Below are positions 2,067 through 62,033 of a stretch of DNA of 62,033 nucleotides, piece by piece (the stretch's first letter is position 1; each line of letters begins with the position of its first letter). The translations under genes were made by a program, and so were the position numbers. The notes beneath the pieces are model-generated. The model saw only the letters and a program-made list of their open reading frames with translations, did no database searches and was not told where the DNA came from. The DNA comes from an uncultured Verrucomicrobiota bacterium (GTDB lineage: Bacteria > Verrucomicrobiota > CALLYA01). The stretch is taken from positions 1 through 62,033 of the forward strand of contig CALLYA010000340.1 in the NCBI GenBank assembly GCA_937875495.1. Reading direction: 5' to 3'.

Positions 2067-4763
2067 ATGGCAGAACAAAAGTTTGTGTACTACTTCGGGG
2101 CAGGTGATTCCGAAGGCGACGCCTCGATGAAGCAGCTCCTCGGCGGTAAGGGAGCCAACTTGGCCGATATGTGTACCCTCGGCCTCCCCGTTCCTCCTGG
2201 CTTCACGATTACGACGGAAGTTTGCGATCTCTATTACAAGCTGGACCGCAAATACCCCAATGGCCTGACCGAGCAGATCGAGCAAAACATCCAGAAGCTC
2301 GAAAAGGCAACCGGCAAGACCTTCGGCCACGGACCCAACCCGTTGCTGGTCTCAGTTCGCTCCGGCGCCGCCGTGTCCATGCCCGGAATGATGGATACCG
2401 TTCTCAACCTCGGCCTCAACGATGAAACCCTCCCCGCTCTGATCCAACTGACCGGGAACGAGCGCTTCGCTTGGGATTCCTACCGCCGGTTCATGCAGAT
2501 GTTCGGCGATGTCGTGCTCAGCCTGGAGCATCACGATTTCGAACACGCCCTCCAATCCGTCAAAGACCGTCGCGGCGCTAAGTTGGACACCGACCTGTGC
2601 GTCGAAGGACTGAAGGAAGTGGCCGCGGAGTATAAGAAGGTCTACGAAGCCGCAGGCAAACAATTCCCCCAGGATGCCCGCGAACAGCTTCTTGCCGCCG
2701 TCACCGCTGTCTTCGGTAGCTGGAACAATCCCCGTGCTCTCAAATACCGCGCGCTGAACGAAATCCGCGGCCTCCTCGGGACCGCCGTGAACGTGCAGAC
2801 CATGGTGTTTGGCAACATGGGCGAAGATTGCGCCACAGGTGTTGCCTTCACCCGTGACCCCTCCACCGGCGAGAACCGTTACTTCTACGGCGAGTACCTG
2901 ATCAACGCCCAGGGCGAAGACGTCGTAGCCGGGATTCGTACGCCGCAGCAAATCACCACTGCAGGCAGCCGCGAGTGGGCCGAGAACAACAGCGTCCCCG
3001 AGGATCGGCGCAAGGCCGATTTCCCCTCTCTCGAAGAGGCGATGCCGGAGTGCTTCCAGCAACTGGACCAGATCCGCGCCAAGCTCGAGAAGCATTACCG
3101 CGATATGCAGGACATCGAGTTCACGATCGAGCAGGGCACCCTCTACATGCTCCAAACCCGCAACGGTAAACGTACCGCTGCCGCGGCCGTGAAAATCGCC
3201 GTCGATATGGTCGCCGAGAACTTGATCACCGAGAAGGAAGCCGTCCTTCGCGTCGATCCCAAACAGCTCGATCAGCTCCTGCATCCCACCTTTAAGAAGG
3301 AAGCCGAAGCAGCAGCCGTCGTTCTCGCGAAAGGCTTGCCCGCCAGCCCTGGTGCCGCTAAAGGCCAAATCGTCTTCTCCGCACACGACGCCGAAACCGC
3401 GGCCCTGGAGGGGCGTGACGTCATCCTCGTGCGCATCGAGACCAGCCCAGAGGACATCGGTGGCATGGATGCCGCCAAGGGTATTCTCACCGGCCGAGGC
3501 GGCATGACGAGCCACGCGGCAGTCGTTGCCCGCGGAATGGGCAAATGCTGCGTCGCCGGTTGCGGCGATGTCGTCATCAATTATAAGGAAAAGACCATGC
3601 GCGCCGGCGATATCGTCCTCAAAGAGGGCGATTGGATCAGCCTCAACGGGTCCAACGGCAACGTCTACAAGGGCAGCGTCGATACCGTCAATCCTCAGCT
3701 GACCGGCCCGTTTGGGACCATTATGGCCCTCGCAGACAAGTATCGGACCCTCGGCGTGCGGACCAATGCCGATACGCCGCATGACGCCGAAGTCGCAGTC
3801 CAACTCGGCGCCGAGGGAATCGGTCTCTGCCGAACAGAACATATGTTCTTCGAGGGCGAGCGCATCGTTGCCATGCGCAAGATGATCCTCGCCGCCGACG
3901 AAGCCGGCCGGAAGAAGGCGCTCGACCTCCTGCTGCCGGTCCAACGCGAGGACTTCATCGGCATCTTCAAGGCACTCAAGGGATTGCCGGCCACGATCCG
4001 ATTCCTGGATCCCCCGCTGCATGAGTTCGTCCCGCACGATGAAGCCGGCCAGGAGGAAATGGCCAAAGCCATGGGCGTCTGCGCACAGGTGATCAAGGAC
4101 AAGGTGGACTCCCTCCACGAGTTCAACCCGATGCTCGGCCACCGCGGTTGCCGTCTCGGCATCTTCTACCCCGAAATCACCGCGATGCAGGCCCGCGCCG
4201 TCATCGAGGCCGCCTACGCGGTCCCCGGCTCTAAGCCTGAAATCATGATTCCGCTCGTCGGAGCCGTCAAGGAATTGACCCACCAGAAACAGATCGTCCT
4301 GGACGTCTATGATGAGATTCGTAAGGAGAAGGGGGCCGATCTCGAATACTTCAAGATCGGAACTATGATCGAGGTCCCCCGCGGGGCCCTCACCGCAGAC
4401 AAAGTCGCCGAAGAGGCCGATTTCTTCAGCTTTGGTACCAACGACCTGACCCAGATGGGCTGCGGCTTCAGCCGTGACGACGCCGGGAAGTTCCTCCAAC
4501 GCTATGTCGAACTCGGCATCTATGAATACGACCCCTTCCAGGTCCTCGACCAAGAAGGCGTCGGCGAACTCGTTCGCATCGCCGCCGAGAAGGGTCGCAA
4601 GACCAAGCCCGATCTCAAACTCGGCATCTGCGGCGAGCACGGTGGCGAGCCGAGTAGTGTGAAGTTCTGCCATAAGGTCGGACTCAACTACGTCTCCTGC
4701 AGCCCCTATCGGGTGCCCATCGCGCGATTGGCCGCCGCTCAGGCCGCGATCCAGTACGCGTAA
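2067..4763 (+). CDS. ppdK: pyruvate, phosphate dikinase
   Basis: ORF 2004..4763 trimmed to ATG 2067, behind AAGGAG (2051-2056). Has the MAEQKFVYYFG..LLGGKGANLA N-terminus, the phospho-His loop GGMTSHAAVVARGMGK and C-terminal PEP-utilising motifs (GTNDLTQ, GICGEHGG). Confidence 0.95.
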   Translation: MAEQKFVYYFGAGDSEGDASMKQLLGGKGANLADMCTLGLPVPPGFTITTEVCDLYYKLDRKYPNGLTEQIEQNIQKLEKATGKTFGHGPNPLLVSVRSGAAVSMPGMMDTVLNLGLNDETLPALIQLTGNERFAWDSYRRFMQMFGDVVLSLEHHDFEHALQSVKDRRGAKLDTDLCVEGLKEVAAEYKKVYEAAGKQFPQDAREQLLAAVTAVFGSWNNPRALKYRALNEIRGLLGTAVNVQTMVFGNMGEDCATGVAFTRDPSTGENRYFYGEYLINAQGEDVVAGIRTPQQITTAGSREWAENNSVPEDRRKADFPSLEEAMPECFQQLDQIRAKLEKHYRDMQDIEFTIEQGTLYMLQTRNGKRTAAAAVKIAVDMVAENLITEKEAVLRVDPKQLDQLLHPTFKKEAEAAAVVLAKGLPASPGAAKGQIVFSAHDAETAALEGRDVILVRIETSPEDIGGMDAAKGILTGRGGMTSHAAVVARGMGKCCVAGCGDVVINYKEKTMRAGDIVLKEGDWISLNGSNGNVYKGSVDTVNPQLTGPFGTIMALADKYRTLGVRTNADTPHDAEVAVQLGAEGIGLCRTEHMFFEGERIVAMRKMILAADEAGRKKALDLLLPVQREDFIGIFKALKGLPATIRFLDPPLHEFVPHDEAGQEEMAKAMGVCAQVIKDKVDSLHEFNPMLGHRGCRLGIFYPEITAMQARAVIEAAYAVPGSKPEIMIPLVGAVKELTHQKQIVLDVYDEIRKEKGADLEYFKIGTMIEVPRGALTADKVAEEADFFSFGTNDLTQMGCGFSRDDAGKFLQRYVELGIYEYDPFQVLDQEGVGELVRIAAEKGRKTKPDLKLGICGEHGGEPSSVKFCHKVGLNYVSCSPYRVPIARLAAAQAAIQYA

Positions 4764-4798
4764 TACAGCAAACCTCGAATCCTAATCTTCGAGCGTGC

Positions 4799-4842
4799 AC
4801 GCCCCGGAACGGTTCCAACCACCGTCCGGGGCGTTTCCTTTG
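4799..4842 (+). terminator. intrinsic terminator after ppdK
   Basis: 10-bp stem ACGCCCCGGA (4799-4808) / TCCGGGGCGT (4825-4834), followed by TTCCTTTG. Confidence 0.6.
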
Positions 4843-4849
4843 CCTCCGA

Positions 4850-5160
4850 TCCGCAGATGAAGGATGAGCGAAAATCGGGATAGGAGTCGCTATCGGTCTC
4901 GGTATCGAAAGGACGCGTGATGGAATTCGGACGGTAACGCAACCGCCTAGTTGGCGTTGATGACGCAACTCGGCAACCAAGTTTAAGCGGTTCATGAAGG
5001 CCAGGTGCCCCCCAGAACAGAAATCGATTCCAATCCCGATTCCGAAACTATTGCCGGAGGTCACGCCTGAAGGAGCACGCCTTTTCGGACAGCTCGAAAA
5101 CGCCACCGCGCCCTCTGCGGGAGACTCGCCGGATCCAGTCAGTTGGAAAGGCGGTTGCCC
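4850..5160. repeat. intergenic mosaic repeat: A-module (inverted relative to the 14957 copy) plus partial B-module
   Basis: Shares GTCGCTATCGGTCTCGGTATCGAA, GGCCAGGTGCC and GATTCC..CCCGATTCCGA with 26160-26455. Ends in CCTTTTCGGAC (5080-5090). 5091-5160 matches the reverse complement of 25861-25930 (CGAAAACGCCACCGCGCCCTCTGCGGGAG). Confidence 0.7.
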
Positions 5161-5200
5161 TCTATCCAGACCGTATCGGTCTGGCCCCCTCCCAGCCTCC

Positions 5201-13064: not shown

Positions 13065-14944
13065 TCCCCTCCGTTCACAGACAGAGTCGATGGGCGCAAG
13101 CCCAGAGGCTGTTTCCGAAATGCCTTTCGCATTCGCTCTCGACGCGCAGGCTCAACCTTGTAGTAAACTTCGTTGCCGTACGGGAAATCATGCGGCTTGT
13201 AGTTCTCCAGCCAACCGTGGCGCAGCTGATAGATCAGCGGATGCGTCACCAGGATCCAAGGACAATCCTCCTGAACCATCCCGGCTAATCGCTCATAGAG
13301 CTCCGTCCGCTCCGCGCCGTCCGGCATCCTGCGCGCCTGCTCAAACAGGCGATCGAAAGCGTCAGAGGCATAGTTGGTGTGGTTCGGACCAGGACTGGAA
13401 TTGGGCCCGAAAAAGAGCTGCAGGAAATTTTCTCCGTCCGGATAGTCCGCTGACCAAAGGATGTAAAACATTTGGGATTCGCGACGGTCAATGCGCTCGA
13501 AAAAGGTCGGCTCCAATTGAAACCTGGGGGTCAGACGAACCCCGATCGAACGCATCATCCCCACCATCAAGTCCGCCCGTTGCCGCATCTCCGGCTGCCC
13601 CTGACTCGCAAAATCGAGGGTCAATTCCAGTCGCGATCCGGTCCGCTCCGAAATGCCCTCCGGATAGCCCGCCTCCGCCAGCAGACGCCGGGCACGGTCC
13701 AGGTCGTAGCCATAGGGGTTCGGGCGGGTGGTGTTGCCGGGTATCCCCGGGGGAATCGGATTCACCGCCTCGATCTCTTGGCCCGCACGTAGCTCGATCA
13801 ATTTGGAGCGGTCCAAGGCTGAACTGAGTGCCTGCCGCAGCTTCTTGTTCCCACCAACAACCGGATCGTCCATGCCAAAACCGATGTAGATCGTCTGAAG
13901 GGCCGGGACCTTGTCCAGCACGACACCACGTGCCTCCAAGGCGGACGAGAGACCGCCCATCACACTCACCCCCTCAAACTGATCCGTCGTGGGCAGCGTC
14001 AAATCGAGACCACCCGCCAAAAACATCAGCCAGGCAGTCGACTCGTCCTGCACCACATACCGGATGATCCGATCCGCAAACGGCAGACTCGCCCCCGCCT
14101 CCGCCAACAGTCCGGCGCGCACATCATCCGATTGCCCTTCCTCCGGATACACCTCGCGGCGACCCGTCTGCGCCCACTTGGGATTGCGCTCCAATTCTAT
14201 CCGGTAGTTGCGCTTCCATTCCACCAGGCGGTAAGGACCTGTCCCCACCGGATATCGCTGGAAATCTCCACCGTAGAACTCCACGGCCTCTCTGGGCACC
14301 ACATGCAGATAGTGCATCGTCAATACCCAGAGGAACTGCGGGTACGGCTCGGTCAACAGGAATTCCAGCGTGTAATCGTCCAGTGCCTGAATCCCCTCCA
14401 CCGGTTCCTCGTAGGCACGATCTCCAACCTCCTCGACCCGCTTGCGGAAGGCCTCCAAACCACGCAGACGCCCTCGAATGACCCAGAACCCCGTCGTCGA
14501 ACTGCGGGGATCCGCAAGCCGTAAGATCGAATAGCGGAAATCCGCGGCGGTTACCTCACGCCCAGAGCCGGAAGGGAAACAACGGTCATCAGCAAAGTAT
14601 ATCCCCGGCCGAAGCCGGAACGTCATCCGCGTCCCGGTCGCATCCACCTCCGGCATCGCCTCTGCCAGCTGTGGTTCCAAACGGTAGGGTCGATCTAAGT
14701 AGCCATACCGTAACAGACCCTCATAGATCAGCCCCGTGATCATCGCCGAGGCGATGTCACCAGACCCAATCGGATCAAGACTGCGCAACCGCTTGGTGGA
14801 TCCAAGCAGTACCCTGTCAGACCTCGTTTCAGGGTCTGGCCGGGCCAATGTAAAGGCATGCAGGGAGAAGCACTCCCCGAAAACGAAGGCCAATAGAGAC
14901 GAAAGGAGGAACTTCGCAACCGGGATCCGCGGCCATCGTGTCAA
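13061..14944 (-). CDS. ABC transporter substrate-binding protein, family 5 (peptide/nickel type)
   Basis: 627-aa ORF with a signal-like N-terminus. First gene of the ABC cluster. TTG start at 14944 with AGGAGG (14953-14958) 8 nt upstream. Confidence 0.8.
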   Translation of the reverse strand: MTRWPRIPVAKFLLSSLLAFVFGECFSLHAFTLARPDPETRSDRVLLGSTKRLRSLDPIGSGDIASAMITGLIYEGLLRYGYLDRPYRLEPQLAEAMPEVDATGTRMTFRLRPGIYFADDRCFPSGSGREVTAADFRYSILRLADPRSSTTGFWVIRGRLRGLEAFRKRVEEVGDRAYEEPVEGIQALDDYTLEFLLTEPYPQFLWVLTMHYLHVVPREAVEFYGGDFQRYPVGTGPYRLVEWKRNYRIELERNPKWAQTGRREVYPEEGQSDDVRAGLLAEAGASLPFADRIIRYVVQDESTAWLMFLAGGLDLTLPTTDQFEGVSVMGGLSSALEARGVVLDKVPALQTIYIGFGMDDPVVGGNKKLRQALSSALDRSKLIELRAGQEIEAVNPIPPGIPGNTTRPNPYGYDLDRARRLLAEAGYPEGISERTGSRLELTLDFASQGQPEMRQRADLMVGMMRSIGVRLTPRFQLEPTFFERIDRRESQMFYILWSADYPDGENFLQLFFGPNSSPGPNHTNYASDAFDRLFEQARRMPDGAERTELYERLAGMVQEDCPWILVTHPLIYQLRHGWLENYKPHDFPYGNEVYYKVEPARRERMRKAFRKQPLGLRPSTLSVNGGE

Positions 14945-14956
14945 CGTATCAGCCTC

Positions 14957-15258
14957 CTAGCATGTAGTCGTCCGAAAAGACGCGCTTCTTCAAGCGCCGC
15001 CTCCAGGCAATGGTTGTCGATCGGTTCGATCGGTCCGATCCTAGTCCGAATCGGAATCGGGATCGATTCCTGTCCAGTATGGCACCCGGCCCTCTGAAGA
15101 CCGCTCAAACCTTGCTGCCGAATCTTGCCAGCACCGTAACACTACGGTTACGCTACCCGGTTCTCGTGTCCCAATCCCAGCCCGCGTCCCTTCGCTACCG
15201 AGACCGATAGCGACCCCGACCCCGATCTTGCTTCGCCATCTACCTTTTCGGACGACCT
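14957..15258. repeat. mosaic repeat A-module, copy A1
   Basis: About 300 bp, bounded by CGTCCGAAAAG (14969-14979) and CCTTTTCGGACG (15243-15254). Near-identical to A2 over the central ~190 bp. Contains GATCGGTTC/GATCGGTCC 9-mers. Confidence 0.8.
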
Positions 15259-15570
15259 CTAGCATGAGCCCGTCCGAAAAGACGCGCTCCTTCAAGCGCC
15301 GCCTCCAGGCAATGGTTGTCAATCGGTCCGATCCTTGTCTGAATCGGGGTCGGGGTCGGAATCGGAAGCGGGATCGATTCCTGTCCAGGAAGGCACCCGG
15401 CCCTCTGAAGACCGCTCAAACCTTGCTGCCGAATCTTGCCAGCACCGTAACACTGCGGTTACGCTACCCGGTTTCTCGTGTCCCAATCCCAGCCCGCGTC
15501 CCTTCGATACCGAGACCGATAGCGACCCCGACCCCGATCTTGCTTCACTATCTAACTTTTCGGACAGCCC
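15259..15570. repeat. mosaic repeat A-module, copy A2 (direct tandem of A1)
   Basis: Same termini (CGTCCGAAAAG ... CTTTTCGGAC). The microsatellite segment differs from A1 (GGGGTCGGGGTCGGAATCGGAAGC). Confidence 0.8.
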
Positions 15571-15586
15571 CCGAGCACCTCCATGC

Positions 15587-15616
15587 AAAAAAAGGGCAGG
15601 ACACCTTGTCCTGCCC
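15587..15616 (-). terminator. intrinsic terminator after secG
   Basis: Stem GGGCAGGAC / GTCCTGCCC (15594-15616), followed on the minus strand by T7 (A-run 15587-15593 on +). Confidence 0.75.
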
Positions 15617-15653
15617 AATTCATCTGACCGTGCCGGACCAGCAGGTCCATACC

Positions 15654-16238
15654 TCAACTCTCAGGTTCGTCTGGGGCCTGCGCAGCACCCGCCTCATCAC
15701 CAGAGGCCTCGACGGGAGATGCCGCATCAGGAGCCGGAGCCTCAATCTCATTCCCTTCCGGTGCAGTCGCCCCAGCCTCCACAGGTGCGACCTCAGCCTC
15801 CACAGGTGCGACCTCAGCCCCCGCATCCACCGCAGGGATTTCGATGGAGAGTGGCGCCTCACCCGCAGGCACTACAGCCCCCGCATCCGCGGGAGACGGG
15901 ACCTCCGCCGAGACGCCCTCGCCTGGCGTGGCCACCTGACCGGCCGGAATTGCCTCCGCAGACGCGGCAACCGGTGCACCCGGACGGACCATCGACCGCC
16001 CCTGAACAGTCTGCAACTTGGCGATCAACAGCGTATTGCAAATAAAGAAAACGGACAGATACGCCGTGATCTTGACCAGGACGTTACCCGCACGAGAACC
16101 AAAAAAGCTCTCGCCCATGCCGCCGCCGAAGGCCAGGCCAAGGCCCTCACTGGCCGTGCGCTGCATCAAAATGATCAGGATCAACAGCAGGGCAACCAGC
16201 AACTGCAACGCGTAAAGTATTCCAAGAAAGATAGCCAT
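15654..16238 (-). CDS. secG: preprotein translocase subunit SecG with long acidic Ala/Pro/Glu-rich C-terminal extension
   Basis: ATG 16238 behind AAGGAAAG. MAIFLGILYALQLLVALLLILIILMQR...GESFFGSR...two-TM SecG core (~80 aa), then ~110 aa of low complexity. Downstream of tpiA. Confidence 0.8.
   Translation of the reverse strand: MAIFLGILYALQLLVALLLILIILMQRTASEGLGLAFGGGMGESFFGSRAGNVLVKITAYLSVFFICNTLLIAKLQTVQGRSMVRPGAPVAASAEAIPAGQVATPGEGVSAEVPSPADAGAVVPAGEAPLSIEIPAVDAGAEVAPVEAEVAPVEAGATAPEGNEIEAPAPDAASPVEASGDEAGAAQAPDEPES
15775..15816. repeat. perfect 21-bp tandem duplication inside the secG tail
   Basis: GCCTCCACAGGTGCGACCTCA x2. It encodes the repeated heptapeptide EVAPVEA. Confidence 0.85.
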
Positions 16239-16364
16239 CGTGATTTCCGCTTTCCTTTTGCTTCGACCGGGCCACCCAACAATAGGCCGCTGAACCCCCA
16301 TAAAGGGCCGCACCTTGTTAGGCCCAAGGCTTCAACGATTCCACTATGAATCCCCGTTTCCGAT

Positions 16365-17446: not shown

Positions 17447-17551
17447 TCTCCTTAGATCAATGGCCCAGCAGGGGCCGCCCAGAGGGGAAACCGTAACGGT
17501 TTGCTACTGAACCTCAGGCCGTGTCGTCTCAGGTGCGTCGCGGAGTTGACC

Positions 17552-18622
17552 ATGGTATCATTGCCGCCCATCAAACGTTCTCAAATCGACCAGTGGCCCG
17601 TTTCGGCCTCCGGCCTCTCCCCGCGTGCCGCCAATTGCCTTACGCGCGCCCGTATCCGCACCATCGGGGAACTCCGAAAGATTCCGAGTGCGGATCTCTT
17701 GAACATCCGCTCCTTGGGGAAGGTTTCCCTGCGCGACATCCGCTCCTTTCTCAATAAGACCAAAGATTTGGAGCAAGGGATCAACCCGCTCCCTCCCATT
17801 CGAACGCTCATCCAACAGTTCGTCGACCGTGGCGACCGCGCCGTTCTCGAACAGCGCTTCGGTTTGATCGGCTCTCGAATCAGCCCCGAAATCGAACGGA
17901 TGTCGCTCCAGGCGATCGGAGAGCAGTGCAGCCGCACTCGGGAGCGAATCCGGCAATGCGAACAGTGCGCGATGGATCGGCTTCGGACCCGCTTGGCCTG
18001 CCACCTCCTACGCCCCTACGCCGACAAGATGGTGACGACCATCGATAGCCGAGATAAGATCCTCTCCGCAGAAGAAGCCCTCATCCTCAGCGGCGATCCC
18101 GATTTCCAGGATTACCACCCAGGCGGACTGCTCCTGCTCTTCTCCGCCCTTTTCCCCGACATCACCTACCACAACGAATACTTCACGACCATTTCCCCAA
18201 ACACCCTCCTCTCGCTCGAGGAGGAAATGCTGAACGCGCTCGATGCGCAATCCGCCCCCGTCTCCAGCACCTTCCTCGCCGAATACCTGTTGACCAACCG
18301 GCCCGGCCCCCTCAAGAGCTGTGGCTTCGTCCATCCCGAGCAAGGCATCGAACGTATCCTCCTTCGAAACCCCAAGGTCGTGGTCACAACCCACCTGGAG
18401 TTCTTCACCAACCAGGAGGTCCTGATCAAACTGCTCGCCCGTGCCATTCAACGCGTCGGCGCCTTCGCGCACTATCGGGATATCTCACAGCAGTACAACG
18501 AAATGATTCACCCCACCCGTCAGCTCGGGGTCGGCTCAATCCTGAAAATCCTCAACGGCGACCAACACTTCACACGGGTCGAACGCGCACACTATGCCCT
18601 CGCCCCAGGCACCAGGATCTGA
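17552..18622 (+). CDS. DNA-binding protein combining an RpoA alphaCTD-like HhH domain and a sigma-70 region-4-like HTH, plus an unassigned ~200-aa C-terminal part
   Basis: LSPRAANCLTRARIRTIGELRKIPSADLLNIRSLGKVSLRDIRSFL parallels [46 protein letters not shown] of the RpoA in this window. MSLQAIGEQCSRTRERIRQCEQCAMDRLR resembles sigma70 region 4. ATG at 17552. Confidence 0.6.
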   Translation: MVSLPPIKRSQIDQWPVSASGLSPRAANCLTRARIRTIGELRKIPSADLLNIRSLGKVSLRDIRSFLNKTKDLEQGINPLPPIRTLIQQFVDRGDRAVLEQRFGLIGSRISPEIERMSLQAIGEQCSRTRERIRQCEQCAMDRLRTRLACHLLRPYADKMVTTIDSRDKILSAEEALILSGDPDFQDYHPGGLLLLFSALFPDITYHNEYFTTISPNTLLSLEEEMLNALDAQSAPVSSTFLAEYLLTNRPGPLKSCGFVHPEQGIERILLRNPKVVVTTHLEFFTNQEVLIKLLARAIQRVGAFAHYRDISQQYNEMIHPTRQLGVGSILKILNGDQHFTRVERAHYALAPGTRI

Positions 18623-18709: not shown

Positions 18710-18825
18710 ATTCCGACGATCCGGATTTCGATTTCGATCCCGATCCGACCGATCCGACCGATCCGACCGATCCGAAAACCATTGCCTGGAGACGACGCCT
18801 TAAAGGAGCGCGCCCTTTCGCCCCC
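18710..18825. repeat. partial A-module of the mosaic repeat family
   Basis: ATTCCGACGATCCGGATTTCGATTTCGATCCCGATCCGACC(GATCCGACC)x2 GATCCGAAAACCATTGCCTGGAGACGACG..GCGCGCCCTTTCG matches 26330-26450. Confidence 0.65.
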
Positions 18826-18901
18826 CCCCAGCAATCTCCATCTTCGGCCAAATTCGGATCCAACGCTGCGAATCCCCGCACTGGGGCGAAGGCGCCAATG
18901 G

Positions 18902-21407: not shown

Positions 21408-23681
21408 TCACATCAACTGGCCGGGGTCGACGTTGACCAGCCAGCGGATCCCACGCTTCTTTCGCAATTGCTGATAGAGCGGTTTCAGACGGTCCACCAA
21501 CCGCAAAATGCCACGGGTCCGTATCAGAATCTGGAACCGAAACTCCCCCCGCAAACGGGCGATCGGAGCCGGCGAAGGTCCCGATACCTGCATCACAGGA
21601 TCCTTCCATGCACGGATCTGTTGGGTCACGTCCATCGTCTCCGCTAAAACCATTGCTTCGTCCGCCCCTAAGGCCTCCAACAAGACCATGTGGCTCCATG
21701 GCGGGAGCGCCAGAGTCCGCCGGACCTCGATCTCCTCCAAGTAAAACCCTTCGTAATCACTGCGGTAGGCATACTGAATCGCCGGATGAAAGGGCGTGTA
21801 GGATTGGACAAAGACCTCCCCCGGCTCATCCCCACGTCCGGCCCGACCAGCAACCTGGGTCAGCAGCTGGAACGTGCGCTCACCCGCCCGGAAATCAGGC
21901 CGGTGCAAACCCATGTCCGCCTGAATGATCCCGACCAGCGTCACATTGGGAAAGTGCAGCCCCTTGGCAATCATCTGCGTCCCGATCAAGATGTCGAGGC
22001 GCCCCCGCCGAAAATCGCCCAGGATCTCGATAAATCGATCCTTGCGGATCATGGAGTCGGAATCGAGTCGGGCGATCCGCGCCTTGGGCAGGAGCTTGCG
22101 CAGAACCAGCTCGACCCGTTGAGTCCCAACCCCCGCATACCGAATCGCTGTCGATCGACACTGGGGCGAAGGACATTCCCGCGGCGGTGCCTGACGATGA
22201 TCGCAGTAGTGACACAACATGAACTCACCGTCTCGATGATAGGTGAGCGGCAGACTGCAATTGGGACACTCCAACACCGTCCCGCATTGCGGACAGCAGA
22301 GGCTGGAGCTGTGGCCGCGGCGGTTCAGGAATAGGATGCTCTGCTCCCCCCGCTCCAATCTCTGCTCCAGGCCGTTCAACAGCGCCTGAGAGAAGACCGC
22401 CGGTGAGGATTGTCCTCCGCCACCTCCCCGCATGTCCAACACCCGGATGACCGGCATCGACGTGCCTTCGACCCGACTCTTCAGCTCTGCAAGCCCATAC
22501 TTACCCGTGCGCGCATTGTAGCTGCTCTCTACCGACGGCGTCGCCGAGCCGAGCAGTACCAGCGCGCCCTCCATCGCACCCCGGACGACAGCCAGGTCCC
22601 GAGCATTGTAGCGCGGGCTGTCACTCTGTTTGTAAGAGCCCTCATGCTCCTCATCCACGACGATCAGGCCCAGCGGCGAAACCGGCGCGAAGACGGCGGA
22701 TCGCGCGCCGACAACCACACGTGCGTCTCCCGAGCGGAGACGATGCCACTCGTCATGGCGCTCGCCCTGAGACAGGTTGCTGTGCAGGACCGCGACCAAA
22801 GGCCCCAATCGGCTCCGAAACCGCTCCACCGTCTGCGGCGTCAGGCTGATCTCCGGCACCATCATGATCGCACCCTGACCCACCTTCAGGATCCGTTCGA
22901 TGGCCTGGAGATAGACCTCTGTCTTTCCACTCCCGGTCACACCGTGGATCAATACCACCCCCGGTTCTTGCCCACCATCCAGACGCTCAACCACCTGAGC
23001 AAAGGCCGCCGCCTGCTCGGTATTCAGTTCAAGGGGCTTCGTGGAAACGACCTCTTGGTCCTCCCACGGCTCCCGGCTTTGCACCTCGTCACGCAATTCC
23101 ACGAGCCCAGCCTTCACCAGCCCCTTGACCGCCGAGGGCGCCCCCCCTCCAAACCGGCGACGAAGCAGCGTCACCGCCGTCGATCCGTTGTCCCGAAGCC
23201 ACTGAAAAACCTCCGCCTGCTTCGGGGCACGCGTACATATCCGGGCCCATACCGCTTCAGGTGGCGGCTCGGAAATCGGAACGGCCACCTGTAACGTCTT
23301 CCATCGGTCTCCCGACCGCACCGGCTCCGGCAGGACCGTCCTCAACGCCATCTCCAACGGACAGCAGTAATAACGCGCGATCCATTCCGCCAGGGCGACC
23401 GTCGCAGGGCGTAGCAGCGGTTCGGGGTGGACCAGTCCCAATACAGGTCGGAGATTCGGGAAGGAGTCCTCCGGAAAGCCGACCACAAAGCCGGTCACCT
23501 CCCGGCTGGCCAGCGGCACGAGGACGTGGCTGCCCAATCGCACAGCCCCCTGCAGATGAAGGGGAACGGAGTAGTCCAACGGCCGATCCATCGCCACATC
23601 AACCGCCACCCGAACAATGGTGCCGACCTCCATCAAACCTCCCTCAAGACGGACCGGAGAACCGGCATCACCCCGTTTCAT
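21408..23681 (-). CDS. priA: primosomal replication-restart helicase PriA
   Basis: Walker A GVTGSGKTEV, DEEH box (IVVDEEHEGSYK) and Cys-rich Zn module CPQCG..CPNC..CHYC. The ATG overlaps the stop of the upstream ABC gene (ATGA). Confidence 0.9.
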   Translation of the reverse strand: MKRGDAGSPVRLEGGLMEVGTIVRVAVDVAMDRPLDYSVPLHLQGAVRLGSHVLVPLASREVTGFVVGFPEDSFPNLRPVLGLVHPEPLLRPATVALAEWIARYYCCPLEMALRTVLPEPVRSGDRWKTLQVAVPISEPPPEAVWARICTRAPKQAEVFQWLRDNGSTAVTLLRRRFGGGAPSAVKGLVKAGLVELRDEVQSREPWEDQEVVSTKPLELNTEQAAAFAQVVERLDGGQEPGVVLIHGVTGSGKTEVYLQAIERILKVGQGAIMMVPEISLTPQTVERFRSRLGPLVAVLHSNLSQGERHDEWHRLRSGDARVVVGARSAVFAPVSPLGLIVVDEEHEGSYKQSDSPRYNARDLAVVRGAMEGALVLLGSATPSVESSYNARTGKYGLAELKSRVEGTSMPVIRVLDMRGGGGGQSSPAVFSQALLNGLEQRLERGEQSILFLNRRGHSSSLCCPQCGTVLECPNCSLPLTYHRDGEFMLCHYCDHRQAPPRECPSPQCRSTAIRYAGVGTQRVELVLRKLLPKARIARLDSDSMIRKDRFIEILGDFRRGRLDILIGTQMIAKGLHFPNVTLVGIIQADMGLHRPDFRAGERTFQLLTQVAGRAGRGDEPGEVFVQSYTPFHPAIQYAYRSDYEGFYLEEIEVRRTLALPPWSHMVLLEALGADEAMVLAETMDVTQQIRAWKDPVMQVSGPSPAPIARLRGEFRFQILIRTRGILRLVDRLKPLYQQLRKKRGIRWLVNVDPGQLM

Positions 23682-25633
23682 GGCCGAGGTTCATCGATCG
23701 TCCAGGCCTGCTTCTGAAACTGCATCCGATAGAGGCGCTCGTACACGCCGTTGCACGCAATTAACTCCTCGTGCGTCCCCACCTCCTGCATGCGCCCATG
23801 AACAAGGACCACAATTGTATCAGCATGCTGGATCGTGGACAACCGATGGGCGATCGCTATCACCGTTCGATCGGCCATCAGCTCATCCAATGCCTTCTGA
23901 ACCAGATACTCGCTCTCGCTGTCCAGGGAAGAGGTCGCCTCGTCCAAGATCAGGATCGGCGGGTTCTTCAGGATCGCACGAGCAATCGCCAGCCGCTGAC
24001 ATTGGCCGCCCGATAACCGACTCCCACGCTCGCCGATCACAGTATCGTACCCCTGTTCCAACTCGACGATAAAGCGATGGGCATTGGCACGCCTGGCGGC
24101 ATCCTCGATCTCACTCGCGGTCGCATCCGGTTTGCCGTAGGCGATGTTGCGGGCAACGCTCGTGTTGAAGAGGATGGTCTCCTGCGTGACGATCCCGATC
24201 TGGGCCCGCAGTGATCGCGTGGATAGGGTCCTCAAATCATGCCCATCAATCGAAACTGAGCCGGCCGTCGGATCGTAGAACCTTGGGATCAAGTTACAGA
24301 GCGTGCTCTTTCCGCCGCCGCTCGGGCCAACCAGCGCCACGACCGTGCCGGCCCTGACCTCCAGGTCTATACCCTCCAGGACATTCCCACTGGAGTCGTA
24401 GGCAAAATCCACCCCCGAAAAGCGAATCGCCTCCCGAATGCTGGGGAGCGTGACCGGATTCGGCGGATCCGCGATCTCAGGCTCCTCGTCCAATACCTGG
24501 AAGACACGCTCCGCAGCCGCCAGGCTCTGCTGAATCGTGAGGTGAATCCTGCTCAACTTCTTCACCGGCTCGTACATCAACATGAGCGCCGTGGCGAAAC
24601 CGAGGAATTCATTGTGGGTCATCCCAACCTGAAAGCAATAGACCAAAGCGGCCCCAATCCCAAGACAGCTCAGAAAGACAATCACCGGCTCCACGATCGA
24701 AGAGGAACGAAGGATCTTGACCTGCTGCCGGAATAGGTTCTGGGCATGACTGGAAAACCGGTCCGCCTCGTGCTCCTCCATACAGAAGCCCTTGACGATG
24801 CGCGCTCCCGTGAAGGTCTCCTGCAAAATGTCGACCAAGTCGCCGATCTTGCGCTGGGCCTTCGAAGAGGCCCGTCGTACCTTCCGCCCATACATGATGA
24901 CCGGAAGCACGCACAACGGGAAGAGAATCAGGGAGAAGACCGCCAAGAGCGTGTTTCGGAAGAAGACATATCCAATCAACACCACCAGGGTGATCGGCTG
25001 CTTGATCAGATCACTCAGGACCGATGAGACCGCCCGCTGAATCATCTGACAGTCGCTGGTCACCCGTCCGATCAGCTGCCCCGTATGGTTCCTGTGGAAG
25101 AACCCGAGGGAGAGAGCGTGCACGTGCGCGAAAAGCTCATTGCGCATGTCCATGACCGCACGATCCCCGACCCAGCCGATCAAATACCGGTTGCCGAAAT
25201 CGAAGAGGCCGCGCAACAGACCCAACAACGGGATCAGGGCGGCATAAGGCAGAATATGCCATAAGGATCGCGGAGAATTGTGCAGAGATTCAGCTCGATT
25301 GCCCTGCTCTCCGCCGCCCGCGGCAGACCCCTCATCACTGACCGCCTGCAATGCCTCCGATGGCCCTCCCGCTTCGGAAGACTTCTTGCCCGGAAGCATC
25401 TCCCCCGTCCATTCGGGCAAGACCCACCCTCCGAGCCCAACCGGCCCCTCGGACGGCTCAGTCCCCCCGGAATCCCCGAAAACTGCACCAAAGGAGTGCT
25501 GCAGCGCCCATGGAATCGCTCCGGTTGAGGCCGCAAACAGCCCGCCGATTAAGATCGCCTGAATCAGGCGCAACTTGTACGGCATCGCATAGCTCAGCAA
25601 TCGGCGATAGGAGGCCATTGGGTCCAGTTTCAT
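23678..25633 (-). CDS. ABC exporter, fused permease/ATPase (MsbA-like lipid flippase family)
   Basis: Six-TM exporter domain plus NBD (GPSGGGKST, LSGGQCQRLAIARA, ILILDEATSSLD). An extra ~70-aa Gly/Ser/Glu-rich insert follows TM1. Confidence 0.85.
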   Translation of the reverse strand: MKLDPMASYRRLLSYAMPYKLRLIQAILIGGLFAASTGAIPWALQHSFGAVFGDSGGTEPSEGPVGLGGWVLPEWTGEMLPGKKSSEAGGPSEALQAVSDEGSAAGGGEQGNRAESLHNSPRSLWHILPYAALIPLLGLLRGLFDFGNRYLIGWVGDRAVMDMRNELFAHVHALSLGFFHRNHTGQLIGRVTSDCQMIQRAVSSVLSDLIKQPITLVVLIGYVFFRNTLLAVFSLILFPLCVLPVIMYGRKVRRASSKAQRKIGDLVDILQETFTGARIVKGFCMEEHEADRFSSHAQNLFRQQVKILRSSSIVEPVIVFLSCLGIGAALVYCFQVGMTHNEFLGFATALMLMYEPVKKLSRIHLTIQQSLAAAERVFQVLDEEPEIADPPNPVTLPSIREAIRFSGVDFAYDSSGNVLEGIDLEVRAGTVVALVGPSGGGKSTLCNLIPRFYDPTAGSVSIDGHDLRTLSTRSLRAQIGIVTQETILFNTSVARNIAYGKPDATASEIEDAARRANAHRFIVELEQGYDTVIGERGSRLSGGQCQRLAIARAILKNPPILILDEATSSLDSESEYLVQKALDELMADRTVIAIAHRLSTIQHADTIVVLVHGRMQEVGTHEELIACNGVYERLYRMQFQKQAWTIDEPRP

Positions 25634-25781
25634 AAACTCACACGCTCACAAGACAGGCAAATCGACGACGATACCCGCGCCCAAGGGTCGCCGACACCGC
25701 CTCTTGGCAAGACACGATTCAAACCGGGGGGAGAGGTTGTCGGACCTCAGACGGACCATGCGGTCTCCAGCCGCAAGACGC

Positions 25782-25836
25782 AAAAAAAAACCGCCCGGCC
25801 ATGGATCCGCAGAGGACCGGATCCATGATGCCGGGC
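25782..25836 (-). terminator. strong intrinsic terminator (minus strand)
   Basis: Arms GCCCGGCCATGGATCC (25793-25808) / GGATCCATGATGCCGGGC (25819-25836), followed on the minus strand by T9 (A-run 25782-25790). Confidence 0.8.
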
Positions 25837-25977
25837 TTCCAAGGTTTGCTAGAGGATGACCGAAAAGGCATCCGCTTTCCCATCCGGATCCGAAGAGCCT
25901 CCCGCAGAGGGCGCGGTGGCGTTTTCGACCTGCCTATGGAGGTGGGTAGGTTCCATGCTCTGCACGCAACATTTTTG
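25783..25977 (-). ncRNA. candidate ~195-nt small RNA originating inside repeat module B
   Basis: Bounded by the promoter-like TTGGCC-N17-TATAAA (26012-25984) and the T9 terminator (25836-25782). No convincing ORF or SD inside. Confidence 0.3.
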
Positions 25978-26157
25978 GGGAATTTTATAGATATCGTGTT
26001 TCAACAGGCCAAGGCAGTGGCTGATAACTGCTCCGATGCCGCTGCATCCCCCCCTCCCAATACCCCTCTGCGCCCTCTGCGTTCTCTGCGGGAGTCCCTC
26101 CCCATCCGGAGCCGGAAACCTTTCGTTGCGACCCAATGGCCTTTTCGGACGGGTTCT
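25846..26157. repeat. mosaic repeat B-module, full-length (~310 bp)
   Basis: Starts TTGCTAGAGGATGACCGAAAAGG and ends GGCCTTTTCGGACGGG. Internal long inverted arms (CTCCCGCAGAGGGCGCGG at 25898 vs CGCCCTCTGCG..CTGCGGGAG at 26068-26095) flank an AT-rich core. Confidence 0.75.
25984..26012 (-). promoter_or_regulatory. candidate sigma70-type promoter inside B-module (TTGGCC-N17-TATAAA)
   Basis: On the minus strand, -35 = 26012-26007, exact 17-nt spacer, -10 = 25989-25984. It sits in the only AT-rich patch of the element. Confidence 0.4.
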
Positions 26158-26159
26158 TG

Positions 26160-26455
26160 CTAGAGGATGACCGAAAAGGTCAATGGCGAAGCAAGATCGG
26201 AGTCGGAGTCGCTATCGGTCTCGGTATCGAATGGGATTCGGACATGAGAGGCCGGGCAACGCTGTCACAACTCAGCAGCGAAGCTTGATCGGTCCATGAG
26301 GGCCAGGTGCCAACTAGAACAGGAATAGATTCCGATCCCGATTCCGACCCCGACCCCGATTCAAACACCGATCCGACCGATCCGACCGATCCCTCGGATC
26401 GGTAACCATTGCCTGGAGGCGACGCATGATGGAACGCGCCTTTTCGGATACCCAC
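26160..26455. repeat. mosaic repeat A-module (inverted relative to A1/A2)
   Basis: CCGAAAAGG..GTCGCTATCGGTCTCGGTATCGAA..GGCCAGGTGCC..(GATCCGACC)n..AACCATTGCCTGGAGGCG..CCTTTTCGGAT. Matches the reverse complement of 14957-15258. Confidence 0.75.
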
Positions 26456-26560
26456 TTGCTAGAGGATGTCCGAAAAGGTTGCCGCTTTCCCAGCCTGTCC
26501 TCCCCATCCGGAACCAGAGACTCACGTGCAGAGGTGCCAAGAGGTTTTCGGACGGGCTCC
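26456..26560. repeat. mosaic repeat B-module, miniature (~100 bp) derivative
   Basis: CTTGCTAGAGGATGTCCGAAAAGGTTGCCGCTTTCCC...CCCCATCCGGA...GGTTTTCGGACGGG. Has the B termini without the core. Ends 17 nt from the trxB stop. Confidence 0.55.
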
Positions 26561-26576
26561 TTCCTCTCCAATAGAA

Positions 26577-27497
26577 TCAGTCCTGACTCTCCAGGTACCG
26601 AATCGCCTCCAGCGCGGCAGCACAGCCGCTGCCCGCGGCCGTGATCGCCTGCCGATACTCGTGGTCTGCAACATCCCCCGCGCCGAAGACTCCGGGCAAC
26701 GAGGTCGCTGTGCCCTTGGTGAGGATCAGATAGCCCTCATCGTCGAGCTCCAGCCAGGGCTTGAAGACCGCCGTGTTCGGGATGTGCCCGATGGCCACGA
26801 ACATCGCACTGACTTCAATCTCGGAAAGCTCCCCGGTCTTCAGATTCTCGATCCGAAGCCCGCTTACCTCACCCTCCTCGACACCCAATACCTCGCTGAC
26901 CACCGAATCCCAAATGAACTCGATCTTCGGATTGGCTTGGGCACGATCGCCCATGATCTGGGAGGCGCGCAGCTCGTCGCGCCGATGGATGACGTAGACC
27001 TTGCTGGCGAATTTGGTCAGGAAAATCGCCTCTTCCATCGCGGAATCCCCGCCGCCGATGACCGCGACAGGGACGTCTCGGTACAGCGCTCCATCACAGG
27101 TGGCACACGAAGATACCCCGTGCCCGATCAACTTCTTCTCGCTTTCCAGCCCCAAATACCGAGGATCCGCCCCGGTGGCGATGATCACCGCCTCGGCCTG
27201 AATCGGGCCGTCATAGGTCTGAATGGTATAGGGGGCCGACCCCAACTCGACACCGGTCACCTCCACCGACAAAAAACGCGCACCGAAGCGCTCCGCCTGG
27301 GTCCGCATGTTCATGGTCAAATCGAACCCCATGATCCCTTCGGGAAATCCAGGGAAATTCTCCACCATCGTCGTGGTGGTCAACTGGCCACCCGGCATCT
27401 TCCCCTCGATCACCAATGGTTTCAATTTAGCACGGGCCGTGTAAATGGCAGCGGTCAGTCCAGCACATCCAGTCCCAATGATGACAACTTTTTCCAC
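26577..27497 (-). CDS. trxB: thioredoxin-disulfide reductase
   Basis: FAD site GTGCAGLTAA, redox centre CATCDG, NADPH site GGGDSAMEEA. The start was set to GTG 27497 behind GGGAGGA (27504-27510), because the longer ORF would begin inside the candidate promoter. Confidence 0.9.
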   Translation of the reverse strand: MEKVVIIGTGCAGLTAAIYTARAKLKPLVIEGKMPGGQLTTTTMVENFPGFPEGIMGFDLTMNMRTQAERFGARFLSVEVTGVELGSAPYTIQTYDGPIQAEAVIIATGADPRYLGLESEKKLIGHGVSSCATCDGALYRDVPVAVIGGGDSAMEEAIFLTKFASKVYVIHRRDELRASQIMGDRAQANPKIEFIWDSVVSEVLGVEEGEVSGLRIENLKTGELSEIEVSAMFVAIGHIPNTAVFKPWLELDDEGYLILTKGTATSLPGVFGAGDVADHEYRQAITAAGSGCAAALEAIRYLESQD

Positions 27498-27547
27498 CTC
27501 AGTCCTCCCAATTTCAGAAAGCGGTTTGACGATCCATAAGATTGGAT

Positions 27548-27575
27548 AGCATACGATTCCAGGGGGCAGCGTCAA
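27548..27575 (-). promoter_or_regulatory. candidate promoter of trxB (TTGACG-N16-TATGCT)
   Basis: On the minus strand, -35 = 27575-27570 and -10 = 27553-27548. About 45 nt upstream of the GTG start. Confidence 0.4.
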
Positions 27576-61829: not shown

Positions 61830-62020
61830 ACTAGAGAGTCCATTCGTAGGATGCAACTACAGCGCGCATTTTCAACGGCCCCGCCAACGCAGTCCGAAAT
61901 GATCGGTGGCAGAGAAAGCTCGGTCTCGATATCGGTCTCGATTTCGCCCCCGATTCAAAGACGGATTGGACGGATCGGAAACCATTGGCTGGAGGGGCGC
62001 GTCTTTCCGGACGGGGATTA
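61830..62020. repeat. short/degenerate copy of the mosaic repeat (A-type) at the window edge
   Basis: CTAGAGAG...CGGTCTCGATATCGGTCTCGATTTCGCCCCCGATTC..GGACGGATCGGAAACCATTGGCTGGAGGGGCGCGTCTTTCCGGACGGGG parallels 26200-26455. Confidence 0.5.
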
Positions 62021-62033
62021 GCCACAGAGGGCA

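Follow-up and report, generated by a model that had tools for sequence, protein, structure and literature searches.

Related Repeat Systems

Bacterial miniature inverted-repeat transposable elements (MITEs), such as Correia/NEMIS of Neisseria, RUP of Streptococcus pneumoniae, and Nezha of cyanobacteria, are small, non-coding, and bounded by terminal inverted repeats (TIRs); they are present in tens to hundreds of copies confined to spacers, have a long hairpin potential, form subfamilies and internal deletions that keep the same ends, and carry no transposase of their own. These properties are shared by a family of intergenic repeats in contig CALLYA010000340.1 (assembly GCA_937875495.1) of an uncultured Verrucomicrobiota bacterium, of which the whole 62,033-nt stretch, hereafter the window, was analyzed. 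The array with which we are mainly concerned is 715 nt long (25846–26560) and lies between an ABC-transporter gene (23678–25633, minus strand) and trxB (26577–27575, minus strand). It consists of three units, module B, module A, and a miniature B (mini-B), each preceded by the hexamer TTGCTA and flanked by the inverted 17-mers GAGGNNNTCCGAAAAGG and CCTTTTCGGANNNCCTC. The explanation that we favor, with moderate confidence, is that the family results from an old burst of non-autonomous, TIR-bounded, MITE-like elements that inserted beside each other's ends.

The family differs from the MITEs above in that it has no clear target-site duplication or identified parent insertion sequence (IS), in that it stacks into arrays with an exact 17-6-17 palindromic junction, and in that its arms have a hexamer or 9-nt period, with a hypervariable variable-number tandem repeat (VNTR) in module A. 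Like the bacterial interspersed mosaic elements (BIMEs) of enterobacteria, which are mosaics of repetitive extragenic palindromic (REP) sequences or palindromic units (PU), it forms mosaics in spacers, with inverted units that alternate in orientation and a few conserved linkers, located after genes and between convergent genes. However, the "linkers" are here hairpin modules of 100–300 nt, the short unit is a half-site of 17 nt instead of a palindrome of 35 nt, a GTAG or CGTC head is lacking, no REP-associated tyrosine transposase (RAYT) was seen in the window or between end pairs, and divergent spacers are used as often.

The BOX elements of S. pneumoniae and the RIME/ERIC-type repeats offer another likeness, namely a few box types, a variable number of modules, and stable predicted stem-loops, but the modules here have inverted ends of their own and occur alone, and they have neither sequence similarity to those repeats nor an Rfam model. 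Finally, the abutted ends of IS30, IS21, and IS3 and the XerC/D-flanked pdif modules of Acinetobacter plasmids, which are swapped or stacked between core sites, have the same fixed short spacing and the same stacking of content between identical sites. Those systems have identified transposases or recombinases and usually a coding cargo, whereas none has been identified for the family described here.

Modules, Ends, and Junctions

The modules range from 98 to 390 nt, and the 17-nt sequence GAGGNNNTCCGAAAAGG is found at both ends of A, B, and mini-B. Modules A and B are each matched on the two strands by the module's own profile and are therefore long imperfect palindromes. The A consensus folds as a single hairpin (−157.4 kcal/mol, z = −8.5) in which the two ends pair together, GGTCAATGG pairs with the conserved CCATTGCC block, and the TCGGNN hexamers of one arm pair with the CCGAYY hexamers of the other; the core of about 120 nt bears small hairpins, and the tail hairpin of A in the window is no better than shuffles (z = 0.59). 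Module B corresponds to the mini-B scaffold plus a core hairpin, which is flanked by CCCATCCGGA direct repeats, and its arms are three CGCAGAG heptamers with a 9-nt period; the copy in the array folds at −123.5 kcal/mol (z = −2.8). Mini-B, without the core hairpin, has kept a single CCCATCCGGA (26503–26512), and its right end is degenerate (GGTTTTCGGACGGGCTC, 26543–26559). A third hairpin module, C, is a 120–135-nt hairpin, GCCACAGAGGGCACAGAGTTCA...CTCTGTGGC, located inside junctions, and its arms are three CACAGAG heptamers with the same period as in B. A MITE-like nature is supported by these deletion derivatives and chimeras (mini-B, the 3' fragments of A, and a copy in locus L134 in which an A arm is joined to a B core), as well as by the nesting of C in junctions.

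Across the family, the distance from CCTTTTCGG to CCGAAAAGG is exactly 22 nt in 13 of the 19 close end pairs, which, where modules abut, makes a 17-6-17 palindrome with a TAGCTA-like center; in these close pairs, a 6-nt spacer is the rule, and a 2-nt spacer was not observed. The first junction of the trxB array (26140–26179) forms a hairpin of −26.5 kcal/mol (z = −4.1). Full 17-6-17 sites are found between modules, and isolated modules and array edges have half-sites only, with no arm-like sequence in the outer flank. The end logo reads c-t-a-G-C-t-a/GAGG (the slash is the element boundary), such that CTAG straddles the boundary; CTAG is 13 times denser inside the repeats than elsewhere in the window (4.25 versus 0.32 per kb). 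A MITE derived from IS630/Tc1-mariner would show a TA duplication within a CTAG target; however, the two bases adjoining the element end are TA in only about 40–45% of solo ends. As regards another tetranucleotide, GATC is very frequent genome-wide (9.9 per kb), at several times the frequency predicted from base composition.

One explanation for such junctions would be a site-specific recombinase of the tyrosine type (Xer-/integrase-like) that moves the modules as cassettes by acting at 17-6-17 core sites, in each of which two inverted binding arms would surround a 6-bp crossover region. This would account for the fixed geometry and its palindromic center, for the stacking of different module types between identical sites, for the identity, within arrays, of the hexamers on either side of a module, and for the apparent lack of an ordinary target-site duplication at isolated copies. 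However, isolated elements and outer array edges bear the inner half-site only, no recombinase gene was seen beside the arrays examined, and the left ends owe their identity, in part at least, to recent gene conversion, since loci L189, L119, and L121 are unconverted (see below). The junctions do not separate end-targeted insertion from a recombinase acting on 17-6-17 sites; it is the half-sites at isolated copies that argue against the recombinase, which we consider quite unlikely.

Another possibility is a REP/BIME- or REPIN-type system mobilized, via single-stranded hairpins, by a RAYT, that is, an IS200/IS605-like HUH transposase. Mosaic arrays of inverted short ends and conserved linkers do resemble BIMEs, the junction forms a 40-nt hairpin, isolated copies have no established target-site duplication, and the copies are old, with no IS-like partner nearby. 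REP units are imperfect palindromes of 20–40 nt with a GTAG or CGTC head, the two heads marking superfamilies (PMC3733652). The end logo of the present family has neither head. Moreover, the repeated units are around 100–300 nt and not 20–40 nt, the short units are 17-nt half-sites that make a 40-nt palindrome only at junctions, isolated elements have plain inverted ends rather than subterminal hairpins, and no RAYT-like gene was seen in the window or between end pairs. We consider a RAYT-driven origin very unlikely. The original prediction, made from the sequence of the window, had termed the family BIME/MITE-like; the MITE-like anatomy is borne out by the inverted ends, the absence of a coding frame, the restriction to spacers, and the repeat-free orthologous spacer of a relative (see below), but the family is not strictly a BIME since it lacks short REP units headed by GTAG or CGTC.

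Copies in the Window and in Metagenomes

In the window, CCGAAAAGG occurs 11 times versus 0.9 expected, a number that none of 100 shuffles reached, and the 17-nt GAGGNNNTCCGAAAAGG has 11 sites within the repeat loci. Other blocks recur from locus to locus: TTGCTAGAGG at 25846, 26157, and 26456, with ATGCTAGAGG at 15256–15265 on the minus strand; GTCGCTATCGGTCTCGGTA at 4886 and 26208 (reverse complement at 15196 and 15508); GGCC(A/G)GGTGCC at 4999 and 26301 (reverse complement at 15081 and 15392); and AACCATTG(C/G)CTGGAG at 18777, 26404, and 61980 (reverse complement at 15001 and 15303). Altogether, repeats make up 3.0% of the window, a 62-kb stretch that was not selected for them.

The original prediction that six intergenic loci carry related sequence is confirmed by profile searches, which place modules at each of them (Table 1), and the conserved blocks that it listed are all in place. 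The inverted termini that it described are indeed shared by the modules but extend over 17 nt rather than 9. They do not bound every module, as had been claimed: the A copy at 4858 is degenerate at its 5' end, and only a 3' fragment of A is present at 18717–18820, without either inverted end; a similar start point for such fragments recurs family-wide (22 matches). The claim that the A core has diverged strongly does not hold either since conservation is even, at 0.82–0.93 per 20-nt bin, the less conserved bins being the microsatellite (0.76) and the two terminal bins (0.84 and 0.72). The last locus, at 61830–62020, is real but continues beyond the end of the window, into a module C that begins at 62018 and, in locus L001, continues for 130 nt or so and is followed by another A copy.

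The settings of these copies vary. The A copy at 4858–5096 is located between the convergent PPDK and SecDF genes, and a B fragment (5087–5161) abuts it, where an inverted repeat is 91% complementary. A tandem pair of A copies, 91% identical to one another, sits between the secG terminator and an SBP_bac_5 gene; the copy ending at 15571 begins 9 nt past this terminator.

For the family at large, a sample of 489 kb was assembled from the window and 62 metagenome loci, to which the addition of strain loci gave 631 kb. The 62 metagenome contigs carry an exact 21-mer from the A tail, with many of the matches at contig ends; around 50 of these contigs come from a single assembly, UOOH01, at 4–8× coverage. 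In the 489 kb, iterated profile searches gave, after the removal of overlaps, 157 A matches and 105 B matches, among which 31 A copies and 15 B copies are full-length. Further repeated segments remain in this sample, one of which is module C. This high copy number and the consistency of the boundaries sustain the idea of a dispersed modular intergenic family, and the similarity survives a formal alignment of the 31 A copies and the 15 full B copies. The UOOH01 contigs have a G+C content like that of the window (59.2% versus 58.9%). Apart from the repeats, the metagenome loci and the window have nothing in common and, hence, no overlap that would give empty sites; these contigs may be other parts of the genome of the same species or of that of a relative. 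Exact window proteins occur in Verrucomicrobiota-labelled metagenome-assembled genomes (MAGs) from fermentation and digester metagenomes. Outside the species, the ABC protein has its closest homologue at 78% identity; those that follow, from Kiritimatiellae and Lentisphaerae, are at 48–57%.

The family was not recognized in the original prediction, and searches agree. A 15-mer scan of a genome collection gave only chance single matches in unrelated taxa (loci L006–L117, which were disregarded). With Rfam, the whole window gives only two tRNAs at gathering thresholds, and region 25700–26650 gives only two sub-threshold matches at chance level at E ≤ 1. The family has no match in PLSDB plasmids or in a phage collection, and neither the A block nor the junction pattern is present in IMG/VR. 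A literature search for the family or its end sequence found only unrelated papers and primers. The family is therefore an undescribed one, albeit of a familiar kind.

The Array Downstream of trxB

A gap of 17 nt separates the mini-B end of the array from the trxB stop codon, and an intrinsic terminator on the trxB strand (25775–25845) lies downstream of the array relative to trxB. Because of its location between the stop codon and the terminator, the array is probably transcribed as part of the 3' untranslated region (3' UTR) of trxB. It is not an assembly artefact since the independent assemblies L189 and L190 carry it.

In a relative (L196), a repeat-free spacer of 228 nt separates the end of trxB (..ALEAIRYLEKLD*) from the ABC gene, the product of which is 78% identical to that of the window. 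The corresponding spacer in the window has 944 nt, that is, the 715 nt of the array plus 229 nt. Given the repeat-free spacer of L196 and the terminator beyond the array, we conclude that the array became inserted in a region that probably now serves as the 3' UTR of trxB.

Are the Structures Maintained?

The location of the array and the folding of the A consensus, far better than that of shuffles, raise the possibility that the modules are selected structured elements (3' UTR RNA hairpins, terminators, mRNA stabilizers, or protein-binding arrays) that have been spread by recombination. In line with this, the arms consist of periodic motifs, and the CACAGAG triple of module C also exists in spacers of unrelated phage contigs. 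A covariation test was performed by counting the 102 pairs of the consensus fold across the 31 A copies and comparing the counts with 500 shuffles; pair counting was used instead of RNAalifold because the full alignment, with its gappy microsatellite, gave 13 pairs only. No covariation was found: the score was 0.093 versus 0.099 in shuffles and was reached by all 500 of them, the covariation measures as a whole were reached by 415–500 shuffles and, in the test for compensatory changes, by 494–500, and 85.7% of the cells were paired versus 86.4% after shuffling. The hairpin potential is therefore attributable to shared ancestry, that is, to inherited sequence and not to a maintained structure, contrary to the proposal that the hairpins are kept by selection. 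At Watson–Crick consensus pairs, G:U-type departures exceed A:C-type departures by 2:1 on the tail-carrying strand (172 versus 85; these cells are not independent), which hints at some strand-specific tolerance.

Nor does the distribution of the repeats point to a function in RNA. They occupy 23% of tandem, 23% of convergent, and 30% of divergent spacers, and the tailed A copies show no orientation bias with respect to flanking genes (14 co-oriented, 10 anti-oriented). A scan of the consensus revealed no sigma-70/promoter-like or terminator-like site. The idea of a small RNA gene with its own promoter and terminator was rejected, as there are no such sites, the tail hairpin is unstable, and there is no orientation bias. 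A maintained role as RNA or terminator is not supported, and since the family also has no Rfam match, is evenly conserved along the element as neutral decay predicts, and is missing from the orthologous spacer of the relative, selection for structure is an unlikely explanation.

A coding function for module A, suggested by its repeat units of 6 and 9 nt, was also rejected: each of the three minus-strand frames is open in some copies or others, without any of them being conserved. Gene callers nevertheless put hypothetical proteins of 72–120 aa, with no Pfam match, on repeat arrays (Table 1); given that the copies have no conserved reading frame, such calls are almost certainly spurious.

The motif in the arms of module C has a wider occurrence. 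The C arm GCCACAGAGGGCACAGAGTTCACAGAGAGA (22–30 nt, with three CACAGAG heptamers at a 9-nt period) is found in identical form in IMG/VR contigs of 44–55% G+C. One of these, L197, is a true phage whose genes include those for a portal, an S49 protease, and a cement protein; it has the arm in three spacers between structural genes. Since these contigs (L197–L199) have no A or B modules and no 17-nt ends, this motif is wider than the repeat family.

Strain Differences and Gene Conversion

The copies have a mean pairwise identity of 78% and form a star-like family, which, together with the even conservation, fits a single old burst and subsequent neutral decay. For each copy, the best dispersed partner is 78–92% identical to it and is mostly one of the copies nearest to the consensus; only tandem neighbors are more alike (91–95%).

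Comparisons between strains reveal local changes. The 9-nt unit GTCGGATCG is present three times in the window and eight times in L189 (alignment A3 columns 209–253), where the flanks are otherwise around 99% identical. In L118, L119, L123, and L124, there is a single chimeric A copy instead of two between secG and the substrate-binding protein (SBP) gene; its A1 body runs into the right flank of A2, a structure that points to deletion between direct repeats. L119 also has a B-B fusion through a CCGGATGGG repeat, and 27 nt are deleted in L121.

In the window, B, A, and mini-B have left ends that are identical over 23 nt, even in having the rare variant GAGGATGA. In L189, L119, and L121, the outer B end has kept GAGGTCGT..CCGAAAAGA, although the flanks are identical. 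The identical left ends of the window array are thus the product of short-tract gene conversion. The consensus of the hexamer outside the ends is TAGCTA on both sides, and, over all 38 elements, the left and right hexamers of an element match each other beyond cross pairs (p = 1e-5); within arrays, this match is due to gene conversion between neighboring ends.

A Proposed Old Burst of MITE-like Elements

How, then, might the array have arisen? In the explanation that we consider moderately probable, B, A, and mini-B would be three members of a family of small non-coding elements that share a 17-bp terminal inverted repeat, GAGGNNNTCCGAAAAGG, recognized by an enzyme encoded elsewhere; the bodies between these ends would be the long imperfect hairpins, built on TCGGNN hexamers in the case of A and, for B and C, on CRCAGAG heptamers with a 9-nt period. 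One old burst would have amplified the family into spacers of all kinds, regardless of gene orientation. New copies would have landed preferentially exactly beside resident ends, giving rise to the 17-6-17 junctions centered on a TAGCTA-like hexamer, and hairpins of the B-core or C type would also have become nested into mini-B scaffolds and junctions. Thereafter, the copies would have decayed neutrally, with changes that are local only, namely slippage of the microsatellite, loss or gain of sequence through deletion or duplication between direct repeats, and gene conversion over short tracts between neighboring ends.

In favor of this explanation are the inverted ends common to different module types, the high copy number, the lack of a conserved frame, the similar use of tandem, convergent, and divergent spacers without orientation bias, the absence of covariation, the star-like family with its even conservation, the repeat-free spacer of the relative, and the density of CTAG at the elements. 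Several observations weigh against it. No two dispersed copies are near-identical, and current activity is thus not apparent. Nor is a target-site duplication established since the hexamers match with only p = 0.24 in the 24 isolated elements; models with a 4-nt, a 6-nt, or a TA/CTAG duplication were tried, and none is significant for isolated copies. This argues against a classical DDE cut-and-paste mechanism. At the strain level, no insertion or excision was found, the differences being due to slippage, deletion between repeats, and conversion. There is no transposase between any pair of ends in the 631 kb, and the open reading frames (ORFs) between ends 0.6–4 kb apart are housekeeping ones (ABC-F, glycogen phosphorylase, MurC, P-type ATPase, and GlmS) plus one for a group II intron reverse transcriptase; nor was a multi-copy protein, or an autonomous IS with the same ends, found in the 489 kb. 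The excess of G:U-type departures is a further difficulty. Finally, the exact 22-nt spacing would require an extra assumption, that of end-targeted insertion, which is known for some IS families. Between two repeat ends of L163 (229–2532), a locus of a related metagenome assembly, there is an ORF for a 452-aa protein like a group II intron reverse transcriptase (..RFADDFVMGF..).

A more radical proposal is that the modules are not ordinary MITEs at all but gene-free cassettes shuffled between 17-6-17 core sites by a lineage-specific recombinase, or arrays of sites (TCGGNN, CRCAGAG) for a protein that binds DNA or RNA, one of these motifs being shared with unrelated phages. This proposal is unlikely; if it were true, 3' UTR arrays with hypervariable VNTRs would constitute a functional, tunable layer rather than junk.

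Table 1. Positions of the repeat modules, their parts, and associated features (window coordinates unless a locus is named)
Feature	Position	Strand	Remarks
Hexamer TTGCTA outside left end of B	25846–25851	+	Recurs at 26157 and 26456; family consensus TAGCTA
Module B (305 nt end to end)	25852–26156	+	nhmmer E = 3.7e-89; profile match 25848–26157
Module B ends	25852–25868 (left), 26140–26156 (right)		
Module B core hairpin arms	25900–25921; about 26066–26094		TCCCGCAGAGGGCGCGGTGGCG; CCCTCTGCG..TCTCTGCGGGAG; center AT-rich
Module B direct repeats	25879 and 26101		CCCATCCGGA
First junction palindrome, 17-6-17	26140–26179	strandless	B right end, TTGCTA (26157–26162), A left end
Module A (293 nt)	26163–26455	+	nhmmer E = 7.3e-84; profile match 26158–26457
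Module A ends	26163–26179 (left), 26439–26455 (right)		
Module A 5' arm of TCGGNN hexamers	includes 26208–26226		Includes GTCGCTATCGGTCTCGGTA
Module A core	26301–26311		GGCCAGGTGCC; core is followed by 3' arm of CCGAYY hexamers
Module A 9-nt VNTR	26370–26387		GATCCGACC; plus one more partial unit (tract 26370–26396)
Module A block	26404–26418		AACCATTGCCTGGAG; then weak tail hairpin
Second junction palindrome, 17-6-17	26439–26478		A right end, TTGCTA (26456–26461), mini-B left end
Mini-B (98 nt)	26462–26559	+	Profile match 26461–26559
Intrinsic terminator, trxB strand	25775–25845	-	17-bp interrupted stem, then U9; −34.6 kcal/mol, z = −4.1
Module A, degenerate 5' end and shortened 3' arm	4858–5096	+	nhmmer E = 5.4e-42; profile match 4858–5093
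Module B fragment (5' part)	5087–5161	-	nhmmer E = 9.1e-15; arm TCCCGCAGAGGGCGCGGTGGCG at 5101–5122, minus strand
Module A, promoter-distal copy of tandem pair	14964–15259	-	nhmmer E = 1.7e-76; profile match 14964–15264
Module A, second copy of tandem pair	15266–15571	-	nhmmer E = 3.9e-83; profile match 15264–15571
Module A 3' fragment	18717–18820	+	nhmmer E = 7.9e-22, profile positions 202–306; microsatellite, AACCATTGCCTGGAG, tail
Degenerate module A (arm and tail)	61889–62014	+	nhmmer E = 2.0e-15 and 5.4e-06
Start of module C hairpin	62018–62033	+	TTAGCCACAGAGGGCA...; last 16 bases of window, cut at window end
Window ORFs on arrays	25801–26163, 4684–5106, 15228–16349		
Called ORFs on arrays	L189 4948–5166, 5448–5810; L190 2686–2904, 3167–3505		
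Module C arm in IMG/VR contigs	L197 5416–5451, 6560–6595, 7787–7822; L198 10067–10088; L199 675–696		

Other Observations at the Repeat Loci

After the last A copy, the minus-strand sequence ATGCTAGGAGGCTGATACGTTG (14944–14963) resembles the hexamer and the start of another element end, and this region provides GGAGG 8 nt before the TTG that opens a 627-aa SBP_bac_5 ORF. Other assemblies call an SBP_bac_5 product of 575–582 aa, and a ribosome-binding site derived from the repeat flank is only a candidate.

Beside the A 3' fragment, locus L118 (GCA_050948605.1, 4790–7350) has a two-gene insert of 2.56 kb that the window lacks (at about 18866–18893); the insert lies between LptF and a gene like that of the C-terminal domain of the RNA polymerase alpha subunit. 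One of its genes encodes a 435-aa protein that matches no Pfam family, the other a 292-aa protein with a DruA domain (PF14236). A direct repeat of around 27 bp, GCCTTCGCCCCAGTGCGGGGATTCGCA, bounds the insert and is present once in the window. From this arrangement, the insert looks like a small integrated defense cassette or, alternatively, its absence looks like a deletion between repeats. The ORF at 17501–18622 (plus strand) combines an RNA polymerase alpha C-terminal domain (PF03118) with sigma-70 region 4 (PF04545), an unusual pairing; the true rpoA is elsewhere in the window.

Significance

The host lineage is uncultured and poorly sampled. The family breaks short-read assemblies, as seen from the many matches at contig ends, and it yields spurious ORF calls in MAGs, so that knowing it helps assembly and annotation. 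The 9-nt VNTR, with its three units in the window and eight in L189, and the changes in copy number are ready markers for strain typing. Its notable features are the fixed palindromic junction, the periodic arms together with an internal VNTR, the demonstrable gene conversion between neighboring ends, and the CACAGAG triple that is shared with phages. The exact 17-6-17 junction poses a testable question, that of end-targeted insertion versus site-specific recombination. The system is also a clean example of concerted evolution, through short-tract gene conversion among neighboring repeat ends, and arrays that lie between a stop codon and a terminator may alter 3' UTRs.

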